A stretch of 44,102 bases of DNA from UHGV virus genome UHGV-0016039. One strand, given 5' to 3'. The notes beneath the pieces were generated by a model. That model worked only from the letters and a program-made list of their open reading frames with translations. It was not told where the DNA came from and searched no databases. The DNA comes from a virus. The position numbers and the translations under genes are program-made. Within the stretch, counting starts at the first letter, position 1. Each line of letters opens with the position of its first letter. Below, in pieces: positions 21-41,341 of the stretch.

Positions 21-50
21 TTGACACCCATCCTGCAACCAATCTATCAT
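21..50 (+). promoter_or_regulatory. sigma70-like promoter (TTGACA-18bp-TATCAT); spacer contains TGCAACCAAT motif
   Basis: TTGACA at 21-26, TATCAT at 45-50, 18 bp spacer; upstream T9 run at 1-9. Confidence 0.5.
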
Positions 51-2912: not shown

Positions 2913-3002
2913 CCGCTTAGGCGCAACCAAGTAGATTAGCAACCAAGCCGAACGGGGTGGCTTCCAATAACCCCGATACATGTGAAAATGAGGAATTGGA
3001 AA

Positions 3003-3791
3003 ATGGCTAAAGTCAACCTGAAAAATGTGCGCGTATGTTTCCTGAAAATTTGGGAACGTGATACCCCTAAACAGGATGGACAAAAACCGGCATACCGCGC
3101 CGTGATTCTTCTTGATAAAGAAGACCCGCAGGTGGACAAAGTGGAGGCGGCAGCGCGCGCAGTGCTCACCGACAAGCTGAAATCCGAGAAGAATGCCGAT
3201 AAGTGGATGGACCGCCACTACGCCCAGGATTCTAAGGAATGTGCAGTTCGCGACGGCGACGAGCGCGATGAAGTAACCGAAGAGTTCGAAGGCATGTTGT
3301 ACATCAACGCCAAATCGTTCAAACAGCCTAACATCCAAACGTCACTGGGCGAGAAGCAGACCGAGCAAGGTCTGACCGTAGACGGCGACGAGATCGAAGG
3401 CCAGGAGATCTACTCCGGTTGTTATTGCAATGTGTCCCTGGATATTTGGGCGTGGAACAATACCAACGGCAAGGGGCTCGGGGCCGGCTTGCTGGGTCTG
3501 CGATTCCGTGAAGACGGCGAAGCCTTCGGGGGTGGCGGGTCTTCATGTTCTGACGAAGACCTGGACAACGATGACGAAGACGAAAGCCCGCGTAAGTCCA
3601 AAAAGTCAAAACGTCGTGATGACGATGACGAAGACGACAAGCCGCGTAAGTCCAAAAAATCCAAGCGCAGCGATGACGATGACGACGACGACGAAGACGA
3701 AAAGCCTCGCAAACGTCGTAAACCACGCGATGACGAAGATGAGGACGACGAAGACGAAGACGAAGCACCACGCAAACGTCGCCGCCGTTAA
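3003..3791 (+). CDS. DUF2815-type phage ssDNA-binding-like protein with C-terminal D/E-rich and PRKSKK repeat tail
   Basis: ATG 3003 preceded by GAGGAA; N-terminal MAKVNLKNVRV..F motif; gene order DUF2800-DUF2815-PolA. Confidence 0.7.
   Translation: MAKVNLKNVRVCFLKIWERDTPKQDGQKPAYRAVILLDKEDPQVDKVEAAARAVLTDKLKSEKNADKWMDRHYAQDSKECAVRDGDERDEVTEEFEGMLYINAKSFKQPNIQTSLGEKQTEQGLTVDGDEIEGQEIYSGCYCNVSLDIWAWNNTNGKGLGAGLLGLRFREDGEAFGGGGSSCSDEDLDNDDEDESPRKSKKSKRRDDDDEDDKPRKSKKSKRSDDDDDDDEDEKPRKRRKPRDDEDEDDEDEDEAPRKRRRR
3556..3788 (+). repeat. in-frame charged tandem repeats (DDDDEDD-KPRKSKKSKR units) at C-terminus of SSB-like protein
   Basis: repeated gacga(t/c)ga.. and ccgcgtaagtccaaaaa units visible in DNA. 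Confidence 0.65.
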
Positions 3792-9584: not shown

Positions 9585-9827
9585 ATGAAATCATTATTTT
9601 TCGACTACGACGGCGACCTTCGATTTTGGGTGCTCCTCACCCTCATGATTGCCGGCTGTATTGGCATACCTTCGACGGCTATTTACTACACGGAACGCTA
9701 CGAATGCAAGACCGTGTATGCCGAGCAAACCGGACGCAATACCCAATGGCGCTATGGTGTCTGCTGGGTGGAGATGAACGGTAAATTTATCCCACGCAAT
9801 GAAATCCGCACCACGGAGATTAAATAA
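9585..9827 (+). CDS. small membrane protein (80 aa, one TM helix)
   Basis: ATG 9585 preceded by GGAG; FWVLLTLMIAGCIGIPSTAIYY. Confidence 0.5.
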   Translation: MKSLFFDYDGDLRFWVLLTLMIAGCIGIPSTAIYYTERYECKTVYAEQTGRNTQWRYGVCWVEMNGKFIPRNEIRTTEIK

Positions 9828-10963: not shown

Positions 10964-11430
10964 AATTACTGATTTGCGATTTGGATGGCGTTATTAATGG
11001 TTCAAGCGATGCGCGTGCCGACCTGGTTCCGGGCATAAAAACAAAATCCACCTTCTGGGCGAAGTGGCACAAAGCGCACGTCCGCGAAGACCTGAACATG
11101 GATATGCTGCCGCTGTTGCGCATGTACAAAGAGCAAGGCTTCGAGATCGCGTATCTGACAAACCGGCAGCTAGAATGTTGGGACACCACCGCCGAGCAAT
11201 TGGAGGTCTTCCCGGTAGGCAGGTTATTCATGCGCCACATGCTGGACGACACCCCGCCGCCAGAGTTTAAAGCGTGCGCTGTGTTCAAAATGGTCTGCTA
11301 TGCGGACGTATCGGAACTGGTCATCATTGAAGACTGTCCGAAGAACATCGCGGCAATTCGTCGGGCGTGCAGCGATTTAATCCCGAAAATTTACGCAATA
11401 AACGTTGCAAAATTTACTTGCAACCAATAG
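10960..11430 (+). CDS. HAD-superfamily phosphatase-like protein (possible nucleotidase)
   Basis: motif I LICDLDGVI, motif II AYLTNR, acidic motif IIEDC. Confidence 0.6.
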   Translation: MKLLICDLDGVINGSSDARADLVPGIKTKSTFWAKWHKAHVREDLNMDMLPLLRMYKEQGFEIAYLTNRQLECWDTTAEQLEVFPVGRLFMRHMLDDTPPPEFKACAVFKMVCYADVSELVIIEDCPKNIAAIRRACSDLIPKIYAINVAKFTCNQ

Positions 11431-11441
11431 GTTGGTTGCAG
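11418..11441 (+). promoter_or_regulatory. perfect 10-bp inverted repeat TTGCAACCAA-tagg-TTGGTTGCAg (candidate operator/promoter element)
   Basis: palindrome read directly from sequence, 50 bp upstream of ATG 11493. Confidence 0.45.
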
Positions 11442-12655: not shown

Positions 12656-14416
12656 TTATTGCTTCAGCGCCGCGATCTCGGCTTTCAACGCCTCCACCTG
12701 CTTAATCGTATCTTGCAATGCGCGCATAGTATCAAGTAACAGCGGCGTCGGGTCTAATTCTAACTGGTGCACTAGCGGCCCATTTAATTCCTGGTTGTTA
12801 TACACGCGATGCTTCACGTACAGCGGGTCTATTTCTTCCGCTTCCTGCGCAATAATACCGCGACGCTGCCGTTTCTGTTCATCGTTGTTGAATACGAACG
12901 TACGGAACCGCAAAGCCTTGATATTGTCGTAGGCGGTGCGGCTGGCGTCATCTTCAATATCATGTTTCAGGTTGCGATCCGACGCAGGCACTTGCTGGAA
13001 CGACCCCACGCCCAGTGGCCCACTGTAAGAAATCTGCCCCTGGTCGTCAAAGCGGAAGTGCATATACGTAGCCATATTCCCCTCGGAGTCACGGTCAGTT
13101 GTGCCGATCGAAATCTGTGCCCGAGGCCAGGCTTCGCCCCCAGTCGTCATCATCCCGAACGACACGCCGCCTGCGTATCCTATGCTTTGTGTTACACAAG
13201 CACCGGCGATTAACGACTGAAAGTTTTCCGCGTAGGTCTGCGCTATGTACGGGTCCGCGCGCACAACGGCCTCGGACCATAGCTGATTATACCCCATCGG
13301 TCCTTTAGAGGATTTGAACTGATGGCCTAAAATACGTGAGCGCGTTGCCCAAGTGTCACCGCTCTCGTAATACAGCCATTCAGCCGCATATCCGCCGCTG
13401 CCGTTGCTTTTTCGCACATATAAGCCGGGGTCTGAGTTTCCGTCTGGTGATAGGATAGCTATGGACGCAAAAACCCCCTTACTACCCCAGTTTGACCCGT
13501 CCCACGTGTTTCGACCCGCGGAGATACCACGGGACGTCACCAGGTCCCCTAAGTTAAGAGAGTCGTCAGGCCCGATGCCTAAGTGACTGCGAGCTGCCGC
13601 GGGGTCGGCAACGTCGCTAAGGTTGTTGCCCTTTGCCAGAAATTTCGACGGGTCGATCTCATTCTTGAATTGTTCGGCCTCGTTCCGGTATCCCCGTGCG
13701 GCATCACGGGCGGCTTGCGCGTCAGTCTTCGCCGTATTGGCCTCGTCGCGAATAGCACCGGTTTCAGTCTTGATCTGGTTCGTCTGGTCTTTTATAGCCT
13801 GCGTATCAGACTTAATCTGATCGGTTTGCGTTTTGATGGTATTAGTGGCGTCGTGGACCGCCTGCGTATCCGCCTTAATCTGATTGGTGGCATCGCGAAT
13901 ACCAGCCGTCTCGGTCTTGAAGCCTTCGGCCTCATTGCTAAACCCTTGCGCAGCTGCTTCAGATGCGGCGGCTTGTTGTTGCAGGTTGCGCATCTCAACG
14001 GGGTCGATCTGTTTCATCAACTGCGACAGATAGCCCCATGACATCCCCTGCATAACCTGCCCGTTAGGTAGCGTAATGGTGATTTCTTCAGCGTCGCCGA
14101 AGATTGCACGCCAGTTGTTTTCATCTGCAATCATCAAGCGCAATGCTTTCTGCGCCTGTACTGTAATGCCCATCGTCGCCAGCGACATGGTATCGCGCGC
14201 AACGCCATCCCATGCAAGGCCGGTTGCCGTTGGGCCGTCGAACGGCAGCACCAGAGTAAGCGCGGTGTCGCTATCGACGGACGCGATCGCCACAGTGTAA
14301 GGGACTTGCCCTACTACCAGCGATAAGAAGTCGCCAGCCTTGAACGCGGTAAACGTTGTTCCGACGCCGACAACCGCCTTGCTGTTATTCGTTACGGATA
14401 GAGTACCCGCTGCCAT
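12656..14416 (-). CDS. tail fiber protein with internal heptad-like repeats and C-terminal intramolecular chaperone (S74-type) domain
   Basis: repeated TNQIK.DTQAI units; C-terminal SDRNLKHDIED...ALRFRTFVF motif; ATG 14416 with AAGAGGA. Confidence 0.85.
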   Translation of the reverse strand: MAAGTLSVTNNSKAVVGVGTTFTAFKAGDFLSLVVGQVPYTVAIASVDSDTALTLVLPFDGPTATGLAWDGVARDTMSLATMGITVQAQKALRLMIADENNWRAIFGDAEEITITLPNGQVMQGMSWGYLSQLMKQIDPVEMRNLQQQAAASEAAAQGFSNEAEGFKTETAGIRDATNQIKADTQAVHDATNTIKTQTDQIKSDTQAIKDQTNQIKTETGAIRDEANTAKTDAQAARDAARGYRNEAEQFKNEIDPSKFLAKGNNLSDVADPAAARSHLGIGPDDSLNLGDLVTSRGISAGRNTWDGSNWGSKGVFASIAILSPDGNSDPGLYVRKSNGSGGYAAEWLYYESGDTWATRSRILGHQFKSSKGPMGYNQLWSEAVVRADPYIAQTYAENFQSLIAGACVTQSIGYAGGVSFGMMTTGGEAWPRAQISIGTTDRDSEGNMATYMHFRFDDQGQISYSGPLGVGSFQQVPASDRNLKHDIEDDASRTAYDNIKALRFRTFVFNNDEQKRQRRGIIAQEAEEIDPLYVKHRVYNNQELNGPLVHQLELDPTPLLLDTMRALQDTIKQVEALKAEIAALKQ

Positions 14417-14437
14417 AGCTAAATCCTCTTAAATTGG

Positions 14438-14466
14438 TTGCATTCTTGATCGAGCGGTGTAATACT
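14438..14466 (+). promoter_or_regulatory. promoter TTGCAT-17bp-AATACT with ATTGGTTGCA element, driving + strand lipoprotein operon
   Basis: TTGGTTGCA at 14434; -35/-10 spacing 17. Confidence 0.45.
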
Positions 14467-14496
14467 AAAACTCAACCAAATATAGGAGATGATACC

Positions 14497-14727
14497 ATGA
14501 AAACTTTAATCAAATCTGCAATCATTGCCGTGGTGGTGAGTATGGCCGTTGGTTGCTCTTCTGGCCCGCGTCCGGACGGTTGGTGCGCGACACAAGCAAG
14601 CGGCGTATGTGTAGCTAAATGGAAAGGCGGTGTCGTTGTTCCGGCGGGTGAGGTTGATATCCGTTATGACGGTATTAAAGGGCATAGCGGATCGGTTCGT
14701 GATTATGGGTCCAGGGAGTGGAACTAA
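14497..14727 (+). CDS. small lipoprotein (signal peptide plus lipobox AVGC, 4 Cys); candidate Llp/Cor-like superinfection-exclusion protein
   Basis: [22 protein letters not shown]; AGGAG 8 nt upstream of ATG 14497. Confidence 0.7.
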
Positions 14728-15662
14728 TGGCGCAAGGTATCTTCATCGATCTTAACGACGGGCGTAACCCGATGACAATCACCGCAGGTATGCGCGCCTT
14801 GAATTTCGCGGGGAACTTCAATGTTTCAAGTGGTGGATTTAGTAAGACATTTCCAATTCAAGGTAATGAAGGGGCTTCCAGGTTTATTCTCCCTAACAAC
14901 GGCGCATACTCCTTCGAACTGGACCGTGGTGTTGAGGTTTATTATATAACGGGCTTTTCATCAACAGCATCCAGCGGAACAATTTCTATTGGTTATGAGA
15001 ATGGTTATCCAGACCGCATAACGCAGTTCTCCGGAACTGTAGTAGAGGTTCTTAGGGCATCGACAGGTCAGGGGCTTTACGTTGCCGACAGTACGGATTT
15101 CACATCAATAACCACAACTGACAGGTTGCTTGTCTGCAAATTCGCTCAAACTATAACATTCTATGATAGTTACACCCTTCCGATATACGGCATACCGTTC
15201 GGCAGGTGGGATAATTCCGGTGTTTCTGTTGAGTACGACGGTGTTAATCGGTTGATATGCACAAACATAAACACAAATGATACAGGGCACACGCCAGGAA
15301 GTGTTACTATGGATTTGGTTATTTTCCAGATGGTTGCGCCAGTGCCGGGGCCGGGGTTAAACATATTTAACCACAACGGCGCCTGTACCCTTTCAACAGT
15401 TACCAGACCCCTTGTTGTGTCCGGATTTATAAATCTGTCAGGTAGCAATCAGTATATTGGTGATTCTTACTTCCCAATACTAAGGTGTGGGTTCAACACT
15501 CGGGCCATACCGGCATACAAGGAACTAAGAAACAAAGGCGTAGTTATGAGCGGCGGATATGTAAGGTCGGGAACTGGCTCCCGAATTGTAAGGTACGAAA
15601 TCGGCAACAGACCCGATGTTACTATCCCAACTCCGCTGCCGTACCTCCCCAACATGTATTAA
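14727..15662 (+). CDS. hypothetical protein (311 aa), Ser/Thr/Gly/Asn-rich, co-transcribed with lipoprotein
   Basis: ATG 14727 overlaps lipoprotein stop (TAATG), GGGAG 8 nt upstream. Confidence 0.55.
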   Translation: MAQGIFIDLNDGRNPMTITAGMRALNFAGNFNVSSGGFSKTFPIQGNEGASRFILPNNGAYSFELDRGVEVYYITGFSSTASSGTISIGYENGYPDRITQFSGTVVEVLRASTGQGLYVADSTDFTSITTTDRLLVCKFAQTITFYDSYTLPIYGIPFGRWDNSGVSVEYDGVNRLICTNINTNDTGHTPGSVTMDLVIFQMVAPVPGPGLNIFNHNGACTLSTVTRPLVVSGFINLSGSNQYIGDSYFPILRCGFNTRAIPAYKELRNKGVVMSGGYVRSGTGSRIVRYEIGNRPDVTIPTPLPYLPNMY

Positions 15663-15680
15663 AGCCCCTTACGGGGCTTT
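15662..15680. terminator. bidirectional hairpin terminator between convergent genes
   Basis: aagcccc-ttac-ggggctt. Confidence 0.55.
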
Positions 15681-15684
15681 AGCT

Positions 15685-18600
15685 TCAGAATGTACCTACT
15701 ACAACCCGGCCCCCTCCAGGCAGGTTAACCGTGACCCCATTCCCGTTAATCTGCACGGTGTTATTTTGTCCGTTAAAAGCGAACTCACCACTGTTAGCGT
15801 ACAGCCTGCCGCGTACGGTCACATTGTTGAACTCGGCCCCACCATCCTTCCAGATACGCCAGCCGCGCGACCCTGTAACGAAGTTATTTGATTGCAGCGT
15901 GTCCGTGATCTGTGCGAAGTTGATGGACGCGTTCTTGATGCGTGCCGTGTCAATATACACCTGCCCGCCGTCAACGATAAAAGCGGACGACAGCGACCCA
16001 TTCGACGGGTGCATAATGTAGAACTGGTCCGCCTTGAACGCGATACGTGATTTAACCGCGCCACCTTCGGCCACGACGGAAAGCTGCATACCGGCATCAT
16101 AGTAAGTCCCGTTATACGTCACGCCGGCCTTAAGGCTGTATGTGGCGCTTCCGCCAGCATGGTTAAACGAGGACGTCATCTTCTGCTCTATAGCCGCGGA
16201 CTGCTCCCCGAACTGCGCGGCTACTTGGGTCTTGTACTCCGCCAGCGCGCCCGCTACGTCTGCCGTTGCCGTTTGTGCCTGCTGGATGGCGGCTTCCTGT
16301 TCCCCGAACTTAGCGGCAACAGTTTGTTGGTACTGGGCGAACGCTTGTTCGTGCGTGCTTTGCGCGGTCTGCAACGTGTGGATTGACGCCTCCGCATCAT
16401 CAAGTCGTGTGCCGATCAACGTTTCCAGTTGCGCGACGGCCTTGTGGGCGTCTGCCGCCACGTTATACGCCACCTTGATTTCGGCATAAATCCCTTTGTA
16501 CTCGGCGCGGGCGTTGAATAGCTGCTGGGCATCGGTGAGCATTGACTCATAAATGCCTTGCGGGATCGTGTTAATAGCTTCCTGGAAGTGTTTACCATCC
16601 TCGGAAGTCAGGAACTCGTCATCAAGCCCCTTCATGTACTCGTCAACTTTGTCACTCACCTGCCCTTCAAACGGGTCCGACCAGTCCGATAGGTTGCCGA
16701 TTTTATCCGCTACACGGGCGCGCAACTGCTGATAGATCCCGAACTCCAGCGACGTTTGGGCGTACTCCGCCCCCGGATATGGGACGTTTGTAAGAAATTT
16801 CCATTCCGTTTCCCCTGTCTTACGCACCTCAAGCTCGGTGTACGAAATATCCGTCGCGGCGTTGTTGTGGTTCCACTTCCACAAAATCTGATGGAGGCCA
16901 GAAATCGCGTTGGTGATGATAGGTGCGTTAAGCCCGCCGAGACGACCATCCACCGGCGTGATAGCGGACGATACCCACGGGGACGAAATCTCGCCCATAC
17001 CGATTGCGCGGACGCGTGCCTGGTAGTTACCGGAGAACACGTTAGGGATGTGAGCGCCGTTCGATGCCGTGCGGGGGATGTTCACCCAGTCGTTACCCCA
17101 CTGGATTTCCATATTCTGTAAGCTGGTACGTCGCCACTGGATTTCATACACCACGGCATCCTTCACCGGCGGGAATACAATATCCACGTTGGTGATTAGC
17201 TGGCCTTGCGATGAAATCTGCGACGGGGTGATGGTCACGGACTCCGGCCCCTTCATTACGCCGTCAGGAACTTGCGTAAAGATGCCTGGGTCAAGGCGAG
17301 CGCCATTATCGACGGCATCATATTTGCTATCGTTGTACTCGATCCCGCGCACTGAAAAAGTGCTGGTAGAGTCGTCATATTCCAGGTCGGTGATGCGGAA
17401 CTTCTGCAACTGGATATCGTTGCCATCAACGCAAAACGGCTGGTCTGGAATAGGGTCGGCGTCCAGTGCGGTTTTTAGCGTAACCTTGTTGCCGTTGACG
17501 CTGGCGATCTCGCGAGTCTCCACATTACCGCTATCGGTGCGTACCATGAATTTATCACCGGGGCGGAACGTGATTTCGCTGTCTGTGTTAAGCACCGTCC
17601 GCGTGCCCGGATCTGACAACAGACGACCGCCGCGTGTCTCGAAGCCGCCAGAAATGTTTGTATCGGCGATCGCGACTACGCTACCCGGAATAAAGAATAG
17701 TCCTTCCATGCCCACCTTAAAGCTAACTTGCTGGTCAAGCTGGTTGGAGATTAGCGCCCAGTGACCGCGGCGTTGCGCTTCCGATTCACGCGTACAGCCG
17801 ATCGCCGTAATATCAAGACGGTTAATCTTATGGCGGCGTACCAGTTCGACACGTTGCCCCGTTGCGATGGCATCATCATAGTGGTTTTTCGGGTTGCCGT
17901 ATGCGACCGCGAAAGTTGAATAGCGCGTTTTCTGGCTGCCAGATGCGTAGTCGAATCGACCATCAATAACCGAGGCGTTGGTGATAGTGTGTGACACTGC
18001 CGCGACTGGTTGGTCACTGACGATATTCAACATCTGGTTGCCCCACCAGGTCATTCCGGCGAAGATGGCGGCTAAATCCTTAAGCACGGTCCATGCGTCT
18101 GTCTGCGACTGGATGTACATATCATTCTTGAATCGGATTTCCCGTCCGCCGTTGCCGTCGCTGACCAACTGATCGCAGCGCTGCGCAATCTGGTAGAGCG
18201 CGTATCGGTTCAGCATTTGCGGTTTGATACGCCGACCGAGGCCGAATCGCTCAGTAATACAAATATCATACCAGTGCCACGCAGGGTTATCCGTCCATGC
18301 GCGTTTGAATGTGCCGTCCCAGTCCCCAGAATAAGTATGATTAATCGGGTCGTAGTTGTTCGGTATTAGAACTTTGCGGCCTTTGCACTTGATGGACACG
18401 CGCGGGATGTTCTGGAACGCTTTGGCATCGAACTCCACAAACAACAGCGCGGTTAGCGGGTAACGCAGGCGGGCGTCGATAATCTCAGTGATGGACTGCA
18501 CCCGGATATCATTAACCACTTTCGCCGATGTGGAGTCCGCCGTCGTGCGGTGTACCTCAACTCGCCAGCCGGTATTAGCGTTCGGCGGTAACTCGATGCG

Positions 18601-19137
18601 GTGGTCGCGCTCGTACAGCGACATTGTTTTACCGACGGCAGCGAAGGTAAACTCACGCGGATCCGCGTTATCGGTATACACGACGATTTTATAGTCGATT
18701 CGCCCGCCCACCAGGTCGCCATTGTCTTCGTTAGTGTACAGTGCCGGGATTCCGACTCGAATGCGCACGGCGTCAAGACTGGTGTCGTTAATCTGGCGCA
18801 CCCACGGCGTGCCGTTTTCCAGTTTTACACCCACTGTTTGCTCGCTTTCCACTGCGGAAAATCCGTGGATTACATCCTGGTGCTGTGTGCCTGGGCGGAA
18901 CTCCACGCGCGCGCCGGGGAAGTTTTCGGATCGGTCGGCGTTCTGGATCGGTGTTCCGTCCAGGTATACGCGCTGCCGTAATTCGTTAGGGTCGGTAATG
19001 CCTTCGAACTCACCTTCGCCCAGGGCAAGCAAGATGCGGATTTTAGCCAGCGAATGCAGGCTGTCAGGCGTCTCCTGTGGGGTGTGCTGTTTGCCGCCGC
19101 CGCCTTTATGGCCTGTGACGTCGTAGATAATCGTCAT
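15685..19137 (-). CDS. tail tip / host specificity protein, lambda J-like
   Basis: 1150 aa; YSGDWDGTFKRAW..WHWYD..RYALYQIAQRCDQLV block matches the conserved lambda J core; ATGA overlap with upstream gene. Confidence 0.9.
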   Translation of the reverse strand: MTIIYDVTGHKGGGGKQHTPQETPDSLHSLAKIRILLALGEGEFEGITDPNELRQRVYLDGTPIQNADRSENFPGARVEFRPGTQHQDVIHGFSAVESEQTVGVKLENGTPWVRQINDTSLDAVRIRVGIPALYTNEDNGDLVGGRIDYKIVVYTDNADPREFTFAAVGKTMSLYERDHRIELPPNANTGWRVEVHRTTADSTSAKVVNDIRVQSITEIIDARLRYPLTALLFVEFDAKAFQNIPRVSIKCKGRKVLIPNNYDPINHTYSGDWDGTFKRAWTDNPAWHWYDICITERFGLGRRIKPQMLNRYALYQIAQRCDQLVSDGNGGREIRFKNDMYIQSQTDAWTVLKDLAAIFAGMTWWGNQMLNIVSDQPVAAVSHTITNASVIDGRFDYASGSQKTRYSTFAVAYGNPKNHYDDAIATGQRVELVRRHKINRLDITAIGCTRESEAQRRGHWALISNQLDQQVSFKVGMEGLFFIPGSVVAIADTNISGGFETRGGRLLSDPGTRTVLNTDSEITFRPGDKFMVRTDSGNVETREIASVNGNKVTLKTALDADPIPDQPFCVDGNDIQLQKFRITDLEYDDSTSTFSVRGIEYNDSKYDAVDNGARLDPGIFTQVPDGVMKGPESVTITPSQISSQGQLITNVDIVFPPVKDAVVYEIQWRRTSLQNMEIQWGNDWVNIPRTASNGAHIPNVFSGNYQARVRAIGMGEISSPWVSSAITPVDGRLGGLNAPIITNAISGLHQILWKWNHNNAATDISYTELEVRKTGETEWKFLTNVPYPGAEYAQTSLEFGIYQQLRARVADKIGNLSDWSDPFEGQVSDKVDEYMKGLDDEFLTSEDGKHFQEAINTIPQGIYESMLTDAQQLFNARAEYKGIYAEIKVAYNVAADAHKAVAQLETLIGTRLDDAEASIHTLQTAQSTHEQAFAQYQQTVAAKFGEQEAAIQQAQTATADVAGALAEYKTQVAAQFGEQSAAIEQKMTSSFNHAGGSATYSLKAGVTYNGTYYDAGMQLSVVAEGGAVKSRIAFKADQFYIMHPSNGSLSSAFIVDGGQVYIDTARIKNASINFAQITDTLQSNNFVTGSRGWRIWKDGGAEFNNVTVRGRLYANSGEFAFNGQNNTVQINGNGVTVNLPGGGRVVVGTF

Positions 19138-24548: not shown

Positions 24549-24617
24549 TATGCAGTCCCCTTTTTTATGCAGTTGCCGATGGATATTGTATCAGCGATTT
24601 CAAAACAAACCTTATTC

Positions 24618-24932
24618 AGTCTCAGACGAGGGGGGCCATTGACCCCCGTCTAGTCTGAAAGACTGGGGTGCTGTCCCGCTGTCCCGATCGGCTAAAAACC
24701 GCGGCAGCACTGGCGGGGACGGGGTGCTGTCCCGCTTTGTCCCGCCCCTTGTTTGTCCCGCTTTTTGTCCCGCTTACTTTATGCAATAAAACTGCATATA
24801 TATGCGTATTTATGGGGTGAGACAAAACGGGGCGTCCCGCCTGTCCCGTTTTGAGTTTATGCAATGAAAGTGATTAGATATGCGGTTTTACAGAGGCGGG
24901 ACAAAACGGGACGTCCCGCCTGTCCCGCTTCA
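24618..24932. repeat. composite repeat copy A: GC hairpin, GTCCCGC/GCGGGAC iterons, TTTATGCA-N-TGCAT palindromes, internal ~75 bp tandem duplication
   Basis: near-identical to 41078-41260; at least 8 GTCCCGC copies. Confidence 0.7.
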
Positions 24933-30542: not shown

Positions 30543-31307
30543 ATGAGACTGACTAAAGTCATTAAAAATCAGATTCTGGCTAACATCCTGCGCGACCACG
30601 AAATAGCGACCAAAGCCAAACTAATAATGATGGACTCGCGTGACTTGGCTTATGCCGTTACGATGGACTGTATGCCGGAAGGCATTCGCACGTTCGCAGC
30701 GCTCCGCGAGCATATCAAGACATTCAGCGGCGACCAGTCGCCGATGTACGGCGTCAGCGTCTACACCAACAAGGCAACATATAGATATGACTCAGGCCTC
30801 CCTAAAGGTATAGGCAGCGTTTATGACGCCACTTTCGAAATAAACGCAGGCGGTAATGTTCGTACCCTATCATTGAGTGGTGACGGTCGGAGATTCCGCC
30901 AACACCGCGGATACTGGGAGGACAAGTATATGAATAAGCTCGCACCGGATCTTAGCGATATTGTTCCTGGGTTTGAAGAAGTTTTGCTGGCGTCAGTGTG
31001 CGAAGTGGACGAGGACGGGAAAGCGTTGCCGATATATCTTCCACGCGGTCGCGCAGATTACCCGGCGGACCATGATTTTTGTAAGCGCCTGGACTGTAAC
31101 GATAAGGCCCGCCGGGAGTTGCGTGCTAAGTATGACGCGTTCAAGTTGACCGTTACCGGTGTGCTGGACCTGCACAATACTGACAAGAAGCTGATTAAGG
31201 CATGGCCTGAAGTTGAGCAATTCATCCCTTACCCGGACAAGCCAAAATCCACGGCGGTGGCGCTGGATGTGAAAACTCTCAACGAGATTTGCGGTATTCC
31301 GCGCTAA
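30543..31307 (+). CDS. hypothetical protein (254 aa) encoded opposite to the flanking head genes (moron-like)
   Basis: ATG 30543 preceded by GAGGA; own promoter upstream and terminator downstream. Confidence 0.6.
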   Translation: MRLTKVIKNQILANILRDHEIATKAKLIMMDSRDLAYAVTMDCMPEGIRTFAALREHIKTFSGDQSPMYGVSVYTNKATYRYDSGLPKGIGSVYDATFEINAGGNVRTLSLSGDGRRFRQHRGYWEDKYMNKLAPDLSDIVPGFEEVLLASVCEVDEDGKALPIYLPRGRADYPADHDFCKRLDCNDKARRELRAKYDAFKLTVTGVLDLHNTDKKLIKAWPEVEQFIPYPDKPKSTAVALDVKTLNEICGIPR

Positions 31308-40918: not shown

Positions 40919-41077
40919 CCAATATTAATCACGCGTATGAAAAAGTTGATCGCTATCTGCTGAATCTGCAAACCGCATTTTTCACTTTCCATTCTGCAAC
41001 TCGCATTGGTTGCCGAGTTCATCGACGACCGCAATTTGCATCATGTTGCCGTGCGGTATGCAATCCTGGATTTTATG

Positions 41078-41260
41078 CAGTCTCAGACGAGGGGGGTGCC
41101 AGACCCCCCGTCTAGTCTGAAAGACTGGGGTGCCGTCCCGCTGTCCCGCTCCTCTGGAAGCCGCGTCATCCGGGGCGGGACGGGGGTGCTGTCCCGCTTT
41201 GTCCCGCCTCTGGTCTGTCCCGCCTTTTGTCCCGCTTGTTTTATGCAGTAAAATTGCATA
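41078..41260. repeat. composite repeat copy B (hairpin, GTCCCGC iterons, ATGCA-N7-TGCAT palindrome)
   Basis: near-identical to 24618-24800 except for a 35-bp substituted core. Confidence 0.7.
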
Positions 41261-41341
41261 ACTATTCACTATATCCACACTACACGGCAACCAATGCGAC
41301 CGACTAAAAGCACTCAAAATGGCAACCAATGCGCGCAGAAT

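Follow-up and report, generated by a model that had tools for sequence, protein, structure and literature searches.

In phage T5, the small periplasm-facing outer-membrane lipoprotein Llp is encoded beside the gene of the receptor-binding protein (RBP) pb5 and blocks the RBP's own receptor, FhuA. Rtp45 of phage Rtp, another small lipoprotein, has been solved by cryo-electron microscopy on the periplasmic face of Shigella LptDE with LptM (PDB 9RPS), where it sits between LptE and LptM and extends a hairpin upward in the lumen (Dunbar et al. 2025, PMC12685063). In that structure extracellular loop 4 (EL4) of LptD is shifted by as much as 20 Å, and in this conformation the RBP could not bind (PMC12685063). 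Where Llp works through long-range allostery, Rtp45 physically displaces a loop, and the RBP of phage Oekolampad (RBPOeko) inserts deeply into LptD from outside with an interface of ~1,700 Å2 (Dunbar et al. 2025, PMC12685063). Here we describe a pair of genes, encoding a 76-aa lipoprotein and a 311-aa protein, in the UHGV virus genome UHGV-0016039, a stretch of 44,102 nucleotides (nt) that was analysed as a whole (the window). With a probability of roughly 0.9, the pair is an LptD-type host-recognition cassette of small coliphage siphoviruses (Dhillonvirus, Rtp-like Drexlerviridae, Queuovirinae), made of an RBP and the lipoprotein that would block its receptor.

The module and its mechanism are already known from work that appeared from 2021 to 2026 (Maffei 2021 and Dunbar 2025 among them), and this locus adds no new kind of biology. 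The homology, layout, predicted fold and cassette borders given below come from the present analysis. A first-pass annotation of this DNA, made from its letters alone, had read the two genes as a candidate superinfection exclusion operon with an unexplained partner protein. The small lipoprotein as a receptor blocker stood up, given its match to PF24052 and its homology to Rtp45, but the mysterious partner turned out to be the phage's own RBP.

The lipoprotein and its partner

As judged by its nucleotide matches, the window is a nearly complete Dhillonvirus genome. Its first 25 kb is 92.8% identical to TheodorHerzl (Bas14) over 94% of the query, and phiEco273, Oekolampad (Bas18), and HK578 are the next-closest genomes to this part. 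Its DNA identity to both Bas14 and HK578 is ~92%. The open reading frames (ORFs) of both genes were confirmed on the + strand, between the lateral tail fibre gene and gpJ, which are each on the - strand (Table 1), and the pair is convergent on gpJ as had been described. The tail fibre gene flanks the module and is not a member of it. At the junction of the two genes the sequence reads ...GAACTAATGGCG, where the TAA stop (14725-14727) and the next ATG (14727-14729) have one base in common; the TAATG arrangement, taken earlier as a sign of coupled translation, is thus present in the sequence. The same one-base overlap was found in Bas14 and Rtp. The convergent stop codons of the RBP gene and gpJ are 22 nt apart.

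The order of lipoprotein gene, RBP gene, and convergent J gene is the same in Rtp (rtp45, rtp44, rtp43), Bas14, and Bas18, and the RBP genes of Rtp and Bas18 likewise adjoin gpJ downstream of the lipoprotein gene. Bas18 differs from the window in having a 2-nt gap in place of the overlap, and its RBP and lipoprotein are only 35% and 46% identical to those described here. The slot beside gpJ has been described in the literature as variable. Since all four of the Dhillonvirus/Rtp loci compared (Rtp, Bas14, Bas18, BMA1) hold a cassette in this slot, the earlier wording that the operon was inserted between the tail fibre and J genes is misleading.

By homology, the 76-aa protein is a predicted LptD-directed superinfection exclusion lipoprotein and a close orthologue of Rtp45. 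It has a signal peptide (residues 1-19, with K2, K6, and a hydrophobic core) that ends in the lipobox AVG-C at Cys20 (codon 14554-14556), which passes the PROSITE-like lipobox rule, and the residue at +2 is Ser, not Asp. The mature part has two further cysteines, Cys30 and Cys38, and the AVGC lipobox and Cys pair noticed in the first pass are therefore real. In a Pfam search (E ≤ 0.1) the only match of the protein was PF24052 'Phage lipoprotein' (E 3e-33, 114 bits against a cut-off of 27, residues 1-75), with no match to Cor. In a PDB sequence search (E ≤ 1) it matched Rtp45 (9RPS chain D, E 4e-40) and two further chains by chance, and no Llp chain, on the assumption that the FhuA-Llp entry is in the library. 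Its identity to Rtp45 is 82.9% overall and 93% (53/57) in the mature part, and it is 93.4% identical to the Bas14 orthologue. Cys20 is invariant in the alignment, and Cys30 and Cys38 are invariant in seven homologues. These two cysteines form a disulfide pair in Rtp45, and residues 30-35 of Rtp45 form a β-sheet with LptD residues 318-323 (Dunbar et al. 2025, PMC12685063). This strand, CATQAS, is identical in the window protein. The two proteins are also alike in their length of 76 aa and in the one-base overlap with the RBP start, and they differ in four mature substitutions and in the signal peptide, which in the window is of the Dhillonvirus type; the promoter regions are unrelated.

The first-pass annotation had compared the lipoprotein with T5 Llp and with Cor of T1 and phi80. 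These remain functional analogues, but by the Pfam and PDB searches they are not relatives, and membership in the Llp or Cor (T1/phi80/N15) families was ruled out on sequence. The lipoprotein is 33% identical to the protein annotated as Cor in BMA1, but this comes from the signal peptide that they have in common, and the mature parts are unrelated. The T5 system also differs in its receptor, as FhuA is a TonB-dependent transporter.

On homology and predicted fold, the 311-aa protein is the phage's receptor-binding protein and not a second exclusion factor. It matches Pfam DUF6453 over its full length (E 6e-123, 410 bits against a cut-off of 25) and matches chain C of PDB 9RPT, 9RPW, and 9RQI, the Oekolampad RBP, over residues 1-311 (E 1.4e-43). 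Its identity is 93.6% to bas14_0025, 95.8% to the HK578 protein, 78.1% to Rtp44, and 35.4% to RBPOeko (bas18_0025). A structure prediction had been suggested as a check, and an AlphaFold2 model built from an alignment of 25 homologues was all-β, with a predicted local distance difference test score (pLDDT) of 85.3 and a predicted template modelling score (pTM) of 0.86. When the model was compared with the PDB by Foldseek, the sole significant match was 9RPT_C (probability 1.00; template modelling scores 0.69/0.83, the latter target-normalised), and all other matches had E values of about 0.3 or higher. The DUF6453 assignment, the full-length match to 9RPT_C, and a predicted fold that matches this chain only together identify the protein as the RBP. 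The full-length DUF6453 domain is common to this protein, the Oekolampad RBP and Rtp44. The richness in Ser, Thr, Gly, and Asn that had caught the eye was borne out (G+T+S+N is 36.7% of the protein).

The 311-aa protein could instead be a host-directed membrane protein, a moron acting with the lipoprotein in exclusion. PHROG 1265 indeed carries the label 'membrane protein; moron', and several RefSeq records name the homologues membrane protein. This is extremely improbable in our view, as the protein has neither a signal peptide nor a transmembrane or other hydrophobic segment (maximum 19-residue hydropathy 1.26), its all-β model matches only the Oekolampad RBP, a homologue binds LptD from the cell exterior, and in 62 of 80 loci the tail operon has the DUF6453 gene directly after gpJ (see below). 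The label was ruled out by hydropathy and fold. The RBP is predicted to sit on the gpJ tip and to bind the extracellular face of LptD.

LptD as the probable receptor and the borders of the cassette

Bas14 and Bas18 are among seven phages of one type that were blocked by spontaneous in-frame lptD deletions (Maffei 2021, PMC8594841); the loop deletions ΔY658-Y678 and ΔL394-V396 of lptD block Bas14 and Bas18. Four unrelated protein families at this locus track the receptors FhuA, BtuB, LptD, and YncD (2026 preprint, 10.64898/2026.04.02.716166), and the family found here tracks LptD specificity 'without exception' in the phages studied (PMC8594841; 10.64898/2026.04.02.716166). Thus the receptor of the window phage is very probably LptD rather than FhuA. 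The loci of TheodorHerzl (bas14_0025/0026) and HK578 are of the same genus and hold the same cassette, with 93-96% protein identity and ~91% nt identity over the locus. Their likeness to the window does not extend to the neighbouring lateral tail fibre, which is only 51% identical to that of Bas14, and the primary (glycan) receptor thus probably differs.

The specificity of the cassette might have drifted from that of the studied homologues to an outer-membrane receptor other than LptD. The RBP is, after all, only 35% identical to the one solved on LptD, and Bas01, an LptD-type phage, also needs NupG, via its J protein (10.64898/2026.04.02.716166). Such a drift is nevertheless very unlikely, because the RBP is 93.6% identical to that of Bas14, itself blocked by lptD mutations, the LptD-contact strand of the lipoprotein is identical to that of Rtp45, and the locus family has tracked LptD in every phage studied. 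With LptD retained as the receptor, the annotation of the locus is settled: the terminal receptor is almost certainly LptD, the 'hypothetical' or 'membrane' protein is the RBP, and the small lipoprotein is the matching receptor blocker. This is of use for host-range prediction and for receptor-cassette swapping, and the borders mapped below mark the points of natural exchange.

Bas14, Bas18, and BMA1 have nearly the same sequence as the window in the 80 nt that precede the lipoprotein gene and in the first five codons of that gene (MKTLI), and this upstream region is unrelated to that of Rtp. Megablast matches from ~140 other records end at window position ~14510. Together these observations place the left border of the cassette inside the signal peptide and suggest that the promoter is a part of the Dhillonvirus backbone. 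Sequence comparison places the right border inside gpJ, at ~15840 and ~50 codons before its end. Over its last 50 aa, J is 80% identical to Rtp43, against 24-50% for the rest of the protein; compared with J of the FhuA-type phage BMA1 the pattern is reversed, with 91-100% identity up to the last 50 aa, where it falls to 26%. The C-terminal tip of GpJ carries a specificity-associated signal (10.64898/2026.04.02.716166). The J C-terminus co-varies with the RBP type, which supports this segment as a docking site matched to the RBP, and we consider it the probable one. The GC content is 44-48% inside the cassette and 53-58% in the flanks.

BMA1 is a Dhillonvirus with Cor at the same position. It resembles the window in the slot, the near-identical upstream region and the MKTLI codons, but its Cor gene is alone on its strand, and two small genes follow gpJ on the J strand.

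Table 1. Coordinates of the cassette, its neighbours and its candidate regulatory sequences in the window
Feature	Position	Strand	Remarks
Lateral tail fibre gene, C-terminal S74 chaperone domain	12656-14416	-	Pfam Peptidase_S74, E 1.4e-11; PHROG 1980
9-mer TTGGTTGCA	14434-14442	+	Overlaps the -35-like hexamer; possible operator or -35 element
Candidate sigma-70 promoter	14438-14466	+	TTGCAT 14438-14443, 17-nt spacer, AATACT 14461-14466, TG 14458-14459 (extended -10)
Shine-Dalgarno AGGAG	14484-14488	+	8 nt before the lipoprotein ATG
76-aa lipoprotein gene	14497-14727	+	ATG start, nested in a longer TTG-started ORF
311-aa gene (RBP)	14727-15662	+	ATG at 14727
GC-rich hairpin, 10-bp stem	15659-15682	both	Core AAAGCCCC-TTAC-GGGGCTTT; candidate bidirectional terminator
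Last ~50 codons of gpJ	15685-15840	-	Inherited together with the DUF6453 RBP
gpJ homologue	15685-19137	-	Convergent with the 311-aa gene

A plausible, though unproven, promoter can be read ahead of the lipoprotein gene. The conserved motif that had been reported at this promoter is real: the 9-mer TTGGTTGCA has 11 exact copies in the window, most of which are upstream of genes, and 26 copies when up to one mismatch is allowed, compared with 11.6 ± 3.7 in shuffled sequences. It looks like an operator or promoter element of a phage regulator. The exact copies are at 34-42(-), 9505, 9522, 11419(-), 11432, 14434, 30499, 30512, 40352, 40883(-), and 40914(-). Several of them are tandem pairs, sometimes arranged as TATATTGGTTGCA directly 3' of a -10-like TATATT, and one pair is an inverted repeat (TGCAACCAAtaggTTGGTTGCA, 11419-11440). 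The genes that these copies precede belong to PHROGs of unknown function (18961, 9871, 1965/Nmad5, 9839). In phage Rtp, 10 inverted repeats have been ascribed to Rtp52.

The hairpin at the other end of the pair takes in the stop codon of the RBP gene, and 2 nt separate its far end from the stop codon of J. Its free energy is -15.5 and -15.9 kcal/mol on the two strands (z -3.0 and -2.6). A GC-rich hairpin is found in the same position in Bas14, Rtp, and Bas18, and in Bas18 the stem sequence differs, which argues for a function.

Distribution and proposed mechanism

By tblastn, the RBP family was found in 334 phage records, with hosts including Escherichia, Klebsiella, Shigella, Salmonella, and Cronobacter, and the lipoprotein family in 292 records. 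Prophage copies are present in enterobacterial chromosomes. We also fetched 80 loci from IMG/VR with a profile of the RBP, mostly prophage-like contigs. The RBP gene directly follows J on the same strand in 62 of these loci, while a coupled lipoprotein gene and a convergent J were found in 15-16. This RBP family therefore has two layouts, of which the inverted one led by the lipoprotein gene seems to be confined to lytic small siphophages. The J proteins that precede DUF6453 genes in IMG/VR end like the J of the window, with the pattern FAFNG..NNTV.INGNG.TVNL.GGGRVVVG.

The Rtp45-type lipoprotein is also encoded by phiEco32-like podoviruses (Gordonclarkvirinae; also ES17 and Bas88/89/94). These proteins are ~43-49% identical and keep the lipobox Cys, Cys30, Cys38, and a VPxGExDxRY hairpin. 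In phiEco32 (NC_010324.1) the gene, phi32_106 at 2926-3207, is among small early genes, adjacent to a tRNA-Arg, and not beside tail genes, and none of the 60 DUF6453 RBP matches listed is from a phiEco32-like podovirus. The known receptors of these podoviruses are O-antigen and probably the lipopolysaccharide core. The phiEco32-type lipoprotein may be a stand-alone blocker of LptD directed against competitors, or it may hint at an unrecognised use of LptD.

We propose the following mechanism for the cassette. Both genes would be transcribed together, opposite to the tail genes, from a backbone promoter with TTGGTTGCA; the TAATG overlap would couple their translation, and the transcript would end at the hairpin that is common to gpJ. 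The RBP would be made in the cytoplasm and dock at the tail tip on the last ~50 residues of the gpJ trimer, probably with one copy per trimer. On the virion it would enter the barrel of LptD, part of the LptDE lipopolysaccharide translocon, at its extracellular mouth, and LptD would be the terminal receptor that triggers DNA injection. The 76-aa protein would be exported by Sec and lipid-modified on Cys20, and Ser at +2 would sort it to the inner leaflet of the outer membrane. There it would bind the periplasmic side of LptD between LptE and LptM, and its β-hairpin would rise in the barrel lumen and displace extracellular loop 4. This would prevent binding by the RBP, whether on an incoming phage or on progeny set free at lysis.

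These last two outcomes correspond to two possible roles. The lipoprotein could mainly spare progeny virions from LptD in the debris of lysed cells and not mainly exclude a second phage, an emphasis to which we give slightly less than even odds. It would fit a lipoprotein gene that is probably cotranscribed and coupled with the gene of a virion protein; the lipoprotein would then be produced along with the RBP, and this need not be at the start of infection. Debris protection has been proposed for T5 Llp, and both roles are named by Dunbar et al. 2025 (PMC12685063). Against setting one role over the other, the two are not exclusive and use the same mechanism. Wietzorrek in 2006 reportedly proposed the debris-protection role for Rtp45.

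A broader idea is that in lytic small siphophages the RBP gene left the late tail operon by inversion and came to follow the exclusion gene, with both on one backbone promoter with TTGGTTGCA, and, relatedly, that Rtp45-type lipoproteins are used alone, as in phiEco32-like phages, as weapons against LptD-using competitors. We regard it as tentative and rather unlikely. If the inversion did take place in this way, receptor blocking and RBP supply would be locked together in time and amount and scheduled by a regulator, apart from the rest of the tail.

Several points weigh against the reading of the pair as an LptD-type host-recognition cassette. The evidence on receptor and exclusion all comes from homologues and not from this phage itself. 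The solved RBP, RBPOeko, is the distant one, and Rtp44, which is closer, could not be expressed (Dunbar et al. 2025, PMC12685063). An in vivo exclusion assay for Rtp45 was not found in that report, so the exclusion phenotype is drawn from the structure and from analogy with Llp. In the 62 loci with RBP directly after J, a hidden Markov model detected no Rtp45-like gene within 4 kb (E ≤ 1e-3), although the model was made from close homologues and divergent exclusion proteins could be missed, and a search for the lipobox pattern downstream of the RBP gave only one unconvincing ORF. The RBP family thus does not strictly need the lipoprotein. The cotranscription of the pair, its timing, and the docking on gpJ are likewise steps that we infer. 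The candidate promoter fits just 7 of 12 consensus positions, and a consensus promoter and terminator scan of 14300-15800 flagged neither it nor the hairpin, so that both rest on reading of the sequence, folding, and conservation. Only three T follow the hairpin on either strand, with no T-run, which is why the scan missed it.

Other features of the window

An Rfam scan at gathering thresholds and a tRNA scan of the whole window gave no matches. An 80-aa ORF (9585-9827, + strand) is behind a tandem TTGGTTGCA pair. It reads MKSLFFDYDGDLRFWVLLTLMIAGC... and has a lipobox-like LMIAGC after an unusually acidic N-terminus; it belongs to PHROG 18961 (function unknown) and has no Pfam match. These sequence features may mark it as another small lipoprotein or as a membrane protein. 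Another TTGGTTGCA pair precedes the gene at 30543-31307 (+ strand), which matches Pfam Nmad5 (nucleotide modification associated domain 5, E 4e-56) and is the second + strand gene in the otherwise - strand structural region.

Two groups of repeats were also seen. The stretches 24612-24930 and 41073-41333, which are 16.4 kb apart, have a common 161-nt repeat with 84% identity and hold the shorter repeats TTATGCAGTCTCAGACGAGGGGGG... and TTTATGCAATAAAA... and hairpin-like units of GGCGGGACAAAACGGGACGTCCCGCC (families D3, D8, D9, D15); they may be duplicated regulatory or terminator regions. The repeats at 346-765 and 3550-3790 (families D1, D2, D4, D7, D10) are in the + strand ORFs 67-765 and 2982-3791, where they encode acidic D/E runs that alternate with lysine-rich KPxKSKK units.

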